A DNA stretch of 20,087 nt. It comes from a virus. Under the pieces are notes generated by a model. That model was not told the DNA's origin, made no database searches, and saw only the letters and a program-made list of their open reading frames with translations. Position numbers and translations under genes: made by a program. The stretch lies in IMG/VR virus record IMGVR_UViG_3300022227_000002, positions 1 through 20,087 of that record. The stretch is one strand, 5' to 3'. Of this stretch, positions 1,468 through 13,817 are shown piece by piece (within the stretch, counting starts at the first letter, position 1; each line of letters opens with the position of its first letter).

Positions 1468-2271
1468 TTATTCTAGCTTATTCACCAGGTTTCTAGCGCC
1501 ATATGTCACTAAAAAGGACGCATTGGCTCTTTTGTATATGGTTGCAATTTCTAATTGATGTTGAATAGTTGGTAGTCCTATATATTCATCTGATACTTGA
1601 AACAATCCAACTTGTTTATATGTTCCTGCTTTAACTAATCCAAATACATCCATACTGTGACTTGCAGGCTTTAATAATAATGCATCTGCACCATCGGCCA
1701 CATATTGATGTGATCGTGATGTCATACCCCATTCATTTTTAACATTTAATTGATAAGTTCTTTCACTAGAAGGTTTACTATCTGATACATCTCTAAATGT
1801 ACTATAAAATACACTTCTCCATTTTACATATGCCATTATTAATTTAGATGTTTCTACTTTAAGATTTTTAACTGTATTTTTTCCCATGTCACTTGGTGCT
1901 AAAACATCTGCTCCTGCAGATTCTAATTGTTTTCCTAAATTTACTAATAATTGTTCACTGGTATCTGGTTTATCTAATACGCAACAATGACCATCTGGTA
2001 GTGTTGAACATAAACATACATCTACACTTAATTGTATTTTTGGGAATTTTGTTTTAATTTTGTTTACAACTTCTGCTTGGAATTTCCAATCAGGTGTCCA
2101 AGTTTTTTTATTAGGTGTTATGAATAATAGAAAATCTTCTAGACCAGAGTCTATGTCTGTTTGAATTCTGTTGTTAATGTCTTTAAGACTATAACTTGAA
2201 TTGTCTGGGCCTAATCCAGCTTCATATGTTTCACCAGACTGGTTGACAAAGATTGGCTGGAGTAAGTCCAT
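1468..2271 (-). CDS. hemB: Porphobilinogen synthase (delta-aminolevulinic acid dehydratase)-like protein lacking the N-terminal arm
   Basis: Ordered PBGS motifs: DLLQPIFV; DVCLCSTLPDGHC (Zn site CxCx7C); AGADVLAPSDM; IMAYVKWRSVFYSTFRD (first catalytic Lys); RTYQL; DGADALLLKP (second catalytic Lys); FQVSDEY; KRANASFLVTYGA. Confidence 0.9.
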   Translation of the reverse strand: MDLLQPIFVNQSGETYEAGLGPDNSSYSLKDINNRIQTDIDSGLEDFLLFITPNKKTWTPDWKFQAEVVNKIKTKFPKIQLSVDVCLCSTLPDGHCCVLDKPDTSEQLLVNLGKQLESAGADVLAPSDMGKNTVKNLKVETSKLIMAYVKWRSVFYSTFRDVSDSKPSSERTYQLNVKNEWGMTSRSHQYVADGADALLLKPASHSMDVFGLVKAGTYKQVGLFQVSDEYIGLPTIQHQLEIATIYKRANASFLVTYGARNLVNKLE

Positions 2272-2277
2272 TTATGT

Positions 2278-2469
2278 TTATTCTGCGATTTGATCGCACA
2301 TTTCTTTTGTTGCTTTGTTTCCAGCTTCTTTGTCATAAACCCAAAGGTAAGAATATACAATTTGGTCACCTTTTTGCATACATCTTTTACCTAAATCTAA
2401 TGCAGGATTTTTTACTGAACAAGCTGTTAATACTAACAACGAAAGAAAAAATATAGCTATTGTTTTCAT
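2278..2469 (-). CDS. Small lipoprotein
   Basis: MK + hydrophobic stretch + lipobox LTA/C; two further Cys in the mature part. Confidence 0.8.
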   Translation of the reverse strand: MKTIAIFFLSLLVLTACSVKNPALDLGKRCMQKGDQIVYSYLWVYDKEAGNKATKEMCDQIAE

Positions 2470-2475
2470 ACTAAC

Positions 2476-2503
2476 ATTATAGCGTATTTTGGTAAAAAGT
2501 CAA
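2476..2503 (-). promoter_or_regulatory. Sigma70-type (early) promoter TTGACT-N16-TATAAT
   Basis: -35 at 2498-2503, -10 at 2476-2481; only 6 nt between -10 and the lipoprotein ATG. Confidence 0.75.
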
Positions 2504-2511
2504 GTTTTGAT

Positions 2512-2613
2512 TTACCAAAAAGTAAACCCTAATATGCTAGATAATATGTTGGTGAATAGTACGATTAAAGATATTTGAATTCCAAGTTTTGATAAAATGA
2601 ATAGTGTAATCAT
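2512..2613 (-). CDS. Putative 33-aa hydrophobic membrane peptide
   Basis: Manual translation MITLFILSKLGIQISLIVLFTNILSSILGFTFW*; below the ORF-track cutoff; fills the intergenic gap; no clear SD. Confidence 0.45.
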   Translation of the reverse strand: MITLFILSKLGIQISLIVLFTNILSSILGFTFW

Positions 2614-2630
2614 AGTTATAGTTATTGCTT

Positions 2631-2653
2631 AGGTGGCACCATAAGTACCACCC
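2631..2653 (-). terminator. Stem-loop downstream of the 77-aa gene (possible terminator or RNA-stabilising hairpin)
   Basis: GGGTGGTAC-TTATG-GTGCCACCT on the minus strand; no good U-tract. Confidence 0.4.
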
Positions 2654-2682
2654 AAGATTAGGTTAAGTTATCTAAATCTATA

Positions 2683-2916
2683 TTATTTTCTATTGAAGAT
2701 ATGATATAGTATCCAAACCGCTACTAAACCTAGTAATCCTTGATCACTAAATCCAGAGAGTACGCCCTGTACATTTCCTATCACAGAAACATTTGGCCAG
2801 AACGGAATACCTTGACCGTTGAAAAGAATTTCTAAAACGATTCCTAATGCGATGAAAGATACACCAACATCAGCAATTCCTTTTGCCCATCCTTTAACTT
2901 TTTGTAAAATATCCAT
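2683..2916 (-). CDS. Small membrane protein (about 2 hydrophobic segments)
   Basis: 77 aa, strong SD AAGGAGG, hydrophobic segments VGVSFIALGIVLEILF and GLLGLVAVWILYHIF; upstream late box CCTAAATA (2973-2980). Confidence 0.8.
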   Translation of the reverse strand: MDILQKVKGWAKGIADVGVSFIALGIVLEILFNGQGIPFWPNVSVIGNVQGVLSGFSDQGLLGLVAVWILYHIFNRK

Positions 2917-12001: not shown

Positions 12002-12027
12002 TCGTTAAAACCCTAGTTAATTGCTCT

Positions 12028-12035
12028 CATAAATA
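12028..12035 (+). promoter_or_regulatory. Late promoter box CATAAATA for the gp26-like gene
   Basis: Located 54 nt upstream of ATG 12090, which has SD GGAG. Confidence 0.65.
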
Positions 12036-12071
12036 TATGTGTATATTACTATTATTGTTAAACATTAGTAA

Positions 12072-12079
12072 TATTTATA
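12072..12079 (-). promoter_or_regulatory. Canonical T4 late promoter TATAAATA for the tape measure-portal unit
   Basis: Exact TATAAATA on the minus strand, 70 nt upstream of ATG 12001. Confidence 0.75.
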
Positions 12080-12089
12080 CGGAGAAAAT

Positions 12090-12956
12090 ATGCCAAAAAA
12101 AACAACAAGCGGAAAATCTAATCCATTAGAGAAATATTTTAGACAACCTAAAATATACTTAAAATTACCCAGTGGTGGAGAATTTTACCAAGATGGTACA
12201 TTGGATTTGCCCTCAAATGGTGAAGTACCTGTGTATCCTATGACGGCAAAAGACGAACTTACATTTAAAACGCCTGATGCCCTAATTAGTGGTCAAGCTA
12301 CTGTTGAAGTTATTAAAAGTTGTGTTCCTAATATTAAAGATCCTTGGTTAATGCCTAGTATTGATTTAGATGCGGTATTAATAGGAATTAGATTAGCAAC
12401 ATACGGAGAAAAAATGACTTTAAGTGTTAAAGTTCCTGGAACTGGAAGTGATAGAGACTTCGAAGTAGATCTAAGAACTTTATTAGACAGGTTGATTAGT
12501 GCAAAATATAATGATGTTTGCTTCTATAATAATATGGAAGTAACAATTAAACCAATAACTTATAAAGAGTTTACTAATAATGCTCTTAAGACTTTTGAAG
12601 AACAAAAAATCTTTAGTTTAGTAAATGATAAAACTATACCAGACGAGCAAAAGATGGATATGTTTAACAAAAGTTTTATAAAACTTACAGCATTAACAGT
12701 TTCATTGGTTTCGGAAAGCATTGTTAGTATAAAAGTAGACGGTGAAGTTGTTACTGATTCTAAAATGATAGATGAATTTATGAAGAACGCAGAAAAAGGA
12801 TTTTATCAAACAGTATTAGATCATATAACAGCACAACGTGAAGAATTTGCTATTAAACCTTTTAAAGCTACAACCTCTGAGGAGGATCAAGAAGCAGGTG
12901 CACCTAAAGAATTTGACGTTCCAATAACTTTTGACCAATCAAATTTTTTCGCGTAA
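12090..12956 (+). CDS. Baseplate hub/tail assembly chaperone, T4 gp26-like
   Basis: LKLPS.G, V.VYPMTAKDEL, C-terminal ITFDQSNFF, typical of gp26-like proteins. Confidence 0.75.
   Translation: MPKKTTSGKSNPLEKYFRQPKIYLKLPSGGEFYQDGTLDLPSNGEVPVYPMTAKDELTFKTPDALISGQATVEVIKSCVPNIKDPWLMPSIDLDAVLIGIRLATYGEKMTLSVKVPGTGSDRDFEVDLRTLLDRLISAKYNDVCFYNNMEVTIKPITYKEFTNNALKTFEEQKIFSLVNDKTIPDEQKMDMFNKSFIKLTALTVSLVSESIVSIKVDGEVVTDSKMIDEFMKNAEKGFYQTVLDHITAQREEFAIKPFKATTSEEDQEAGAPKEFDVPITFDQSNFFA
12944..12950 (+). other. Putative -1 programmed ribosomal frameshift site T_TTT_TTC
   Basis: X_XXY_YYZ heptamer correctly phased at the end of 12090..12956; the -1 frame is open into 12962..13180. Confidence 0.7.
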
Positions 12957-12961
12957 GGATA

Positions 12962-13180
12962 TTGACAAAAACTCTCCCTGAGATTCTTAAGGAAGTTGAT
13001 GTCCTAGATAGTGAGAGTAAACAACTTAAAGCTGATTTATTCAGATTAGCTTGGTATATGCGGGGAGGTGTGACTTTAAATGAAGCATTTAATACAACCT
13101 ACGAAGACCGTGAAATTATGTCAACAATTATAAAAGAAAACCTTGATACAACCAAAAAATCCGGATTACCATTCTTTTAA
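12962..13180 (+). CDS. gp51-like baseplate/tail assembly chaperone; probably the frameshift extension of the upstream gene
   Basis: LAWYMRGGVTLNEAFN..YEDRE motif resembles GT-like/gp51 chaperone tails; weak TTG start. Confidence 0.65.
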   Translation: MTKTLPEILKEVDVLDSESKQLKADLFRLAWYMRGGVTLNEAFNTTYEDREIMSTIIKENLDTTKKSGLPFF

Positions 13181-13244
13181 TCCACAATTTTGATACCTAT
13201 AACATTATATGAATACTTAATTCTGTGAGAATACCGTTCTAAAT

Positions 13245-13817
13245 ATGTCTGTAATGGAAATTTACACACAAATTAACAAGCCCGACTGGGTGCATCAAGA
13301 CGACTCCTGGTTGCCTTGCTTAAAGTCCACGACAGTGGACCACAAAGAAGCAAAAAAACAAGCCTTGTTAATAACTCACATCAAAGCCATCGAGCATTAC
13401 AAGTATCCCCTTGAGTCGTTGTTCGATCAAAAGATTATATGCGTAGGTTCTAAAACTTACGATAGACTTCATGAGATGGGATTCAAACATATAGACTGGC
13501 GCCCCCGCGCCGAAGAAATTCGGATCGTGTCGCGAGACACAGGAGATATTACATGGTTAAGGGGAGACAAATGGGCACGAGATTTTTCACACATACAAAA
13601 AGTTACAACAATCCAAACATACAAAAGCGAACCGCACAAAACTAACATTAAAAAAATATTAAAGATGAGTCCAGACATATTGCACGTATACAGCAATACA
13701 GTATTAAAAGAATTTGAAATAAGAAGTTGGCCTACAACACTTTTAAACCACACTCAGAGTTGTGATCCAGATCGAGCACTGTGGGAAGAAACAAAAGTAT
13801 TTGATCCTAATGTATAG
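13245..13817 (+). CDS. hemD: Uroporphyrinogen-III synthase (HemD)-like protein, compact
   Basis: Ordered HemD-like motifs: IYTQ..P (cf. ITRP), LPCLKS (cf. P.IEI), LLITHIKAIEHY (cf. IFTS.NAV..F), IICVGSKTYDRLHEMGF (cf. AVG..TA..L...G), P.AEE, WLRG, IQTYKS (conserved Tyr), DILHVYS (cf. D.V.F.S). The start may be ATG 13254. Confidence 0.7.
   Translation: MSVMEIYTQINKPDWVHQDDSWLPCLKSTTVDHKEAKKQALLITHIKAIEHYKYPLESLFDQKIICVGSKTYDRLHEMGFKHIDWRPRAEEIRIVSRDTGDITWLRGDKWARDFSHIQKVTTIQTYKSEPHKTNIKKILKMSPDILHVYSNTVLKEFEIRSWPTTLLNHTQSCDPDRALWEETKVFDPNV

Follow-up and report, generated by a model that had tools for sequence, protein, structure and literature searches.

A lineage of marine T4-like jumbo phages carries predicted genes for most steps of heme biosynthesis

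Introduction

Virus-encoded heme metabolism appears in the literature that we searched as single steps, namely, 5-aminolevulinic acid (ALA) synthase, hemO/pcyA, and ferrochelatase. Wegner et al. (2024) reported that viral ALA synthase (valaS), HemO, and PcyA are active (PMC11480375), and only relatives of the valaS and HemO/PcyA types have been assayed, by others; neither that paper nor its supplements name hemB, hemC, hemD, hemE, hemF, or hemH. Ferrochelatases of pelagiphages lie beside 2-oxoglutarate- and Fe(II)-dependent (2OG-Fe(II)) oxygenases (PMC9599517), and a 2026 preprint lists coproporphyrinogen oxidase among temperate-phage genes. No report of phage HemB to HemE, or of a near-complete viral pathway, was found in the literature searched, most subscription journals being outside its coverage. 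Here, we analyze hemB and hemD in a 20,087-nucleotide stretch of virus DNA (positions 1 to 20,087 of IMG/VR record IMGVR_UViG_3300022227_000002, hereafter the window), which is the initial 20 kb of a linear viral record of 104.7 kb, itself estimated to be 30% complete, together with the other heme genes of the phage lineage to which it belongs.

A preliminary description of the window held that phage tetrapyrrole genes were familiar only downstream of heme, a premise contradicted by the published valaS and pelagiphage ferrochelatases. The valaS/hemO/pcyA/X phages (PMC11480375) resemble the window lineage in being aquatic, in combining a C4 entry enzyme with heme oxygenase and a PcyA/X-type reductase, and in their proposed role, a sustained supply of tetrapyrroles, whereas in the window lineage the steps between ALA and heme appear to be phage-encoded as well. 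In the pelagiphages (PMC9599517), as here, hemH directly follows 2OG-Fe(II) oxygenase genes, but these are small podoviruses with the last step only, while the window lineage consists of jumbo phages with most of the pathway. Among cellular systems, marine Alphaproteobacteria (Pelagibacteraceae NAT182, MarineAlpha5, and OCS116) have a compact heme operon that comprises hemC with an extension, hemB, hemE, hemH, hemF, and hemJ or hemG. This operon follows the same route with nearly the same enzyme set as the phage and includes the nearest cellular HemB (39% identical), a protein of 306 amino acids (aa) whose N-terminal arm is already short. In contrast, the phage genes are dispersed, no hemJ or hemG was found with them, the HemB arm is fully lost, HemD stands alone with no significant match to the cellular HemC extension, and the phage enzymes are only 28-59% identical to their cellular counterparts. 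The gene set described below is a real and conserved extension of the known phage repertoire and is apparently new to the literature.

Results

HemB and HemD of the window

Two open reading frames (ORFs) of the window encode heme biosynthesis proteins, assigned from the features given in brackets:

1468..2271, (-) strand: hemB, zinc-type porphobilinogen synthase, 267 aa (Pfam ALAD, active-site residues, AlphaFold2 model)
13245..13817, (+) strand: hemD, shortened uroporphyrinogen III synthase, 190 aa, or 187 from Met4 (AlphaFold2 fold, profile alignment)

The first ORF, which had been called porphobilinogen synthase (PBGS)-like, is a PBGS (HemB). It matches Pfam ALAD with an E value of 1.1e-40 and 140 bits (cut-off 24.6), falls short of the NCBIfam equivalog threshold (126 against 297), and yields an AlphaFold2 model of high quality (predicted local distance difference test score, pLDDT, 94.9) with a TIM-barrel fold and a template modeling (TM) score of 0.90 to Escherichia coli ALAD (1b4e). 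Alignment to the E. coli enzyme showed that both Schiff-base lysines (K150 and K201), the zinc ligands (C86, C88, and C96), and the lid arginines (R160 and R171) are kept. Across 38 phage HemB sequences all of these are invariant except R171, which is nearly so, and turnover of two ALA to porphobilinogen is predicted.

While the fold and catalytic residues are shared with E. coli PBGS, the phage protein differs in length (267 versus 323 aa), in the loss of the N-terminal arm, and in an Arg at the presumed position of the allosteric-magnesium glutamate. The alignment begins at E. coli residue 29-30 (profile position 26), and all 38 phage homologues have the same start and no arm. In cellular PBGS, the arm builds the regulated, active octamer; armless phage HemB would therefore form a smaller oligomer free of octamer-type regulation.

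The second ORF encodes a HemD homologue, and its relatives begin at Met4 of the window ORF. Its match to Pfam HEM4 (E = 0.017, 14.7 bits) is below the cut-off of 27.5, as is that of the best of ten relatives tried (22.5 bits), and it matches NF004592 with an E value of 1.4e-4. The AlphaFold2 model (pLDDT 86) has the two-domain fold of uroporphyrinogen III synthase (UROS): all of the top Foldseek matches (13/13) are UROS structures, and a separate, non-Foldseek structure search (VIA) returned five UROS chains with Z scores of 11.8-9.6 before the first unrelated fold at 6.4. The best of these, Shewanella UROS 3mw8, superposes with Z 11.8 and a root-mean-square deviation of 3.1 over 174 residues. 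Sequence profiles gave a concordant assignment, since the HemD family profile finds a true HEM4 protein and aligns to it with an hhalign probability of 97.9%. A search of PDB sequences with the first HemD profile returned noise only, and a wider profile gave one weak HemD match. These results bear out the earlier UROS-like label and the remark that both enzymes are shortened.

Most members of the HemD family are 179-200 aa long, with identities down to 27%. T44, H45, G68, G107, and Y126 are conserved, and four of these (T44, G68, G107, and Y126) align to the HEM4 protein; Y126 is presumably equivalent to Tyr168 of human UROS, the tyrosine after the linker strand. The fold is that of Shewanella (3mw8) and human (1jr2) UROS, but these are 237-260 aa long against 190 in the phage. 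From fold and conserved residues, the protein is a putative uroporphyrinogen III synthase, which would cyclize hydroxymethylbilane to isomer III. Because this family of 187-190 aa falls below the Pfam cut-off, annotation pipelines would under-count the pathway.

Phage context and selection

The window belongs to a marine T4-like jumbo phage of ~330-355 kb. Cultured T4-like jumbo phages of 285-470 kb (Phosso, Vibrio 2.275.O, PA5oct, and BF) have capsid proteins that share 64-68% identity with that of the window phage, whose relatives come from marine metagenomes, as judged by record names. The genes that place hemB and hemD in a phage genome are the following:

3140..9871, (-) strand: head module, with gp23-type capsid, scaffold, gp21 protease, and portal

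Given this head module, both hem genes are phage-borne. hemB lies ~0.9 kb downstream of the capsid gene, with two small ORFs between them, and hemD comes after the baseplate-hub gene, from which a 72-aa ORF separates it. The sister phage shows an identical gene order, on contigs of 174-252 kb. hemB and hemD also co-occur in related phages, sharing at least 20 viral contigs (19 IMG/VR contigs present by name in both lists, and one found later).

Both genes are under purifying selection, with ratios of nonsynonymous to synonymous substitution rates (dN/dS) against the sister phage of 0.14-0.20 for hemB and 0.08 for hemD; among very close strains there were too few changes to judge. Together with the single phage clade formed by HemB (see below) and the fixed gene positions, these ratios support the proposal of the preliminary description that this is a domesticated phage system and not captured host DNA.

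Around hemD, a TAAATA box resembling T4-type late promoters lies at window positions 13240-13245, just 5' of the gene and 8 bases before Met4. As a raw count, 18 of 97 ORFs have such a box within 60 bases. A gap of ~370 bases (13818-14190) lies 3' of hemD.

Remaining genes of the pathway

The rest of the pathway was located on a map that is a composite of strains, for which overlapping contigs were tiled outward from the window (leftward with G023 and G072, rightward with G052 and G070, and then with ENA, NCBI, and JGI contigs). The left and right walks met at a dnaK-CTP synthase-nuclease block, and the circle of ~330 kb was closed via 12 overlaps, all 91.5-100% identical in nucleotide sequence. 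It carries ALA synthase (ALAS; TIGR01821, 535 bits, cut-off 339), a 285-aa HemC (TIGR00212, 302 bits, cut-off 164), ferrochelatase HemH (TIGR00109, 278 bits, cut-off 125), HemF and HemE (E values of 4e-86 and 4e-77, both above the Pfam cut-off), as well as a heme oxygenase (HemO) and a PcyA/X-type bilin reductase. ALAS (pyridoxal phosphate-binding Lys245), HemC, HemF, HemN, and HemH all have their active-site motifs, and HemE keeps its arginine and aspartate motifs. The preliminary description had anticipated hemC, and perhaps hemE and hemH, elsewhere in the genome; all three occur in the phage lineage, along with ALAS and hemF or hemN. Judging from these assignments, seven of the eight heme-building steps (ALAS, HemB to HemE, HemF/HemN, and HemH) appear to be encoded in one phage lineage, in addition to two predicted heme-to-bilin genes.

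ALAS, hemC, hemF, hemE, and hemH are dispersed within about 30 kb, and individual contigs combine hemF with hemE and hemH, ALAS with hemF and hemE, or ALAS with hemC. A longest contig of 243,163 bp is listed for HemB and HemD with exactly the window's sequences and likewise for the G070 HemO and reductase; for HemB, HemD, HemF, and the reductase of the sister phage, the listed length is 355,620 bp. A 73,493-bp contig, the longest for HemC and for one ALAS variant, bears a protein for which 243,163 bp is likewise given. Matching listings of 243,163 or 355,620 bp constitute strong but indirect evidence that the genes share a molecule. The lack of HemC in the record that contains the window and in 21 fragments with hemD was attributed to fragmentation, since HemC was found on a tiled contig, and a weak HemC match in G037 (E = 0.006, below the cut-off) was set aside. 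A very large family of phage HemC proteins, 244-251 aa long, is without most of the C-terminal domain (L354:7471-8214, P0065-P0176).

In two assemblies, the HemF locus is occupied by HemN (TIGR00538, 405 bits, cut-off 325):

L585:13745-15609: HemN, replacing HemF at L588:3294-4130
L586:14202-15368: HemN, replacing HemF at L588:3294-4130

A UbiM-like hydroxylase gene follows hemN in the first of these, and the exchange of the oxygen-dependent HemF for the oxygen-independent HemN is possibly an adaptation to low oxygen. The pathway points to heme b and bilins; no tetrapyrrole methylase (uroporphyrinogen III methyltransferase, PF00590) for siroheme or B12 was found in six tiles searched or among the called genes of the other tiles.

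The same lineage also encodes isocitrate lyase, a glutamine synthetase-like protein, aldehyde dehydrogenase, NadA, and SufB (L560:10575-12847, L555:3650-5110, L588:5683-8084). Elsewhere, a type I secretion-like block (outer-membrane efflux protein, AprE-like adaptor, and a 250-aa membrane protein; L576:790-8904, L575:1-8904) is adjoined by a cadherin/FecR protein of 1000-1500 aa and a CHASE2 adenylate cyclase.

Origin of the phage genes

Phage HemB proteins form one clade (support 100/99), sister to the short-armed operon enzymes of marine Alphaproteobacteria (Pelagibacteraceae NAT182 and related metagenome-assembled genomes, MAGs), a sister-group reading that depends on the position of the root in a tree for which the tree tool issued a long-branch warning. 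A marine alphaproteobacterial donor of HemB is likely on this phylogeny, and a host from the same group is plausible. The arm of NAT182 HemB is only ~17 residues long. Among 50,697 GenBank phage records, the only hemB matches were ~26-30% identical ones that look like host DNA.

Marine alphaproteobacterial HemC proteins are ~500 aa long, with a C-terminal extension of ~190 aa that has no Pfam match (L594:2466-3953, L595, L635, L602) and is probably a divergent HemD. Derivation of phage HemD from this extension was considered and rejected, as the two show no significant match.

Gene slots and family pattern

In this group of phages, heme genes are both frequent and mobile: ALAS-family queries matched 481 viral loci, and HemC queries matched 229. 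Their arrangement varies among clades. One clade has the consecutive genes hemF-hemC-hemE-hemB at a distance of 8.5 kb from ALAS, another has hemF-hemB-hemO, and in another hemD is near ALAS. The dispersed, non-operonic layout noted earlier therefore holds for the window lineage but not for clades that keep the hemF-hemC-hemE-hemB string. One site recurs:

12090..16740, no strand assigned: slot between the baseplate-hub gene and gp46, occupied by hemD in the window and, in other clades of the family, by hemC, hemE-hemC, or hemE-hemF-hemC

Between this lineage and other phage clades, HemE and HemH share only 28-33% identity, and the gene set was therefore assembled more than once. Next to the slot, the window encodes a PD-(D/E)XK nuclease (14207-14749), and relatives encode an unrelated protein of 143-149 aa that is GIY-YIG-like by eye (L045:10966-11397, L452:5071-5520); such nucleases may help genes enter and leave the slot. 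In one clade, a gene of the fatty-acid desaturase family, alkane monooxygenase-like, is situated between ALAS and the hem string (L165:14048-15112). DUF454 (YbaN-like) follows ALAS in most clades, and AlgH/DUF179 adjoins hemD or ALAS (L011:2043-3685, 8824-9408; L581:12161-13957); both may be tied to heme handling.

Discussion

We consider it probable that these phages run a C4, protoporphyrin-dependent route to heme b, part of which is turned into bilins. ALA synthase would condense glycine and succinyl-CoA in the infected cell, HemB would yield porphobilinogen, and HemC with the short HemD would yield uroporphyrinogen III, which HemE and HemF (HemN in some strains) would carry to protoporphyrinogen IX. 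A host oxidase or air oxidation could supply the absent oxidation step before ferrochelatase inserts iron to give heme b. The heme would most likely supply respiratory hemoproteins after the shutdown of host expression, while a part would be opened by heme oxygenase and then reduced to bilin.

Several observations count against this route. HemD is ~60 aa short and below family cut-offs, HemB is without the arm on which the active octamer of cellular enzymes is built, and HemE of this strain scores 289 against a TIGR cut-off of 303 and has Gly in place of the usual C-terminal His (L588:10001-11092). The genes are spread over several contigs from different samples, with same-contig links drawn from matching bp figures, and some relatives, including a complete 328-kb genome, show no hemB, hemC, or hemD match. 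No protoporphyrinogen oxidase (HemJ, HemG, or HemY) was found in five tiles, a very divergent form being still possible, and HemJ and HemG queries gave nothing significant in any phage locus. Finally, no phage cytochrome c was found.

This last result also speaks for bilins as the main product, with heme a mere intermediate drained by phage HemO and PcyA/X, a reading that is partly compatible with ours and that we regard as possible but clearly less probable. hemO and a bilin reductase occur within the same genome, hemO directly follows hemF-hemB in one clade, and valaS-hemO-pcyA/X cassettes have been published (PMC11480375). However, no bilin-binding protein was identified, hemO has no physical linkage to the hem genes of this lineage, and isocitrate lyase, SufB, NifU, NadA, and the ubiquinone hydroxylase of some strains fit a general support of respiration. 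The phage might instead rescue a heme-auxotrophic host that lacks heme synthesis or several of its steps, bringing the pathway so that no scavenged heme is needed. Seven steps, not one bottleneck enzyme, are what a missing host pathway would require, and heme auxotrophy is widespread in streamlined aquatic bacteria. We nevertheless find this unlikely, as a host that has the pathway itself would most simply supply the missing oxidase, the closest relatives in cells lie in complete operons, and family members carry differing subsets of the genes.

The patchy and swappable distribution of the genes, the several acquisitions suggested by the divergence of HemE and HemH, and the shortening of HemB and HemD would also suit independent single boosters or remnants, in which HemB or HemD is inactive or repurposed and there is no joint flux. 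Purifying selection on both genes, catalytic residues invariant in 38 HemB sequences, and the presence in one lineage of seven consecutive steps, but of no side-branch gene, make this quite improbable. As for recently captured host DNA or mis-assembly, proteins assigned to Pelagibacteraceae MAGs share 94-96% identity with the HemN of one strain, and the short MAG contigs concerned could be mis-binned phage. For hemB and hemD, this explanation is largely refuted and hardly credible: numerous independent contigs show them amid virion genes in constant positions, the best match in cells to HemB is only 39% identical, and the guanine-plus-cytosine content of the hem genes (0.30-0.39) matches that of the phage (0.32).

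Phage metabolic genes are usually single bottleneck enzymes, whereas here seven consecutive heme steps and heme breakdown appear to be combined in one viral genome. The favored phage-run heme route would connect valaS, hemO, and pcyA/X, published genes that are so far unexplained, within a single route. Each phage hem gene is open to complementation in E. coli, and armless HemB is a natural case in which to ask whether activity requires the N-terminal arm and the octamer. A bolder and rather doubtful extension is that these jumbo phages make heme largely alone, by means of a minimal HemD and a HemB that is armless and unregulated, in hosts unable or no longer able to do so, and swap HemF for HemN at one locus to suit low-oxygen water; if true, a virus would supply a whole cofactor pathway to its host. 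If the phage-run route to heme and bilins is true, infected cells would be places in the ocean where iron-porphyrin is produced and turned over.

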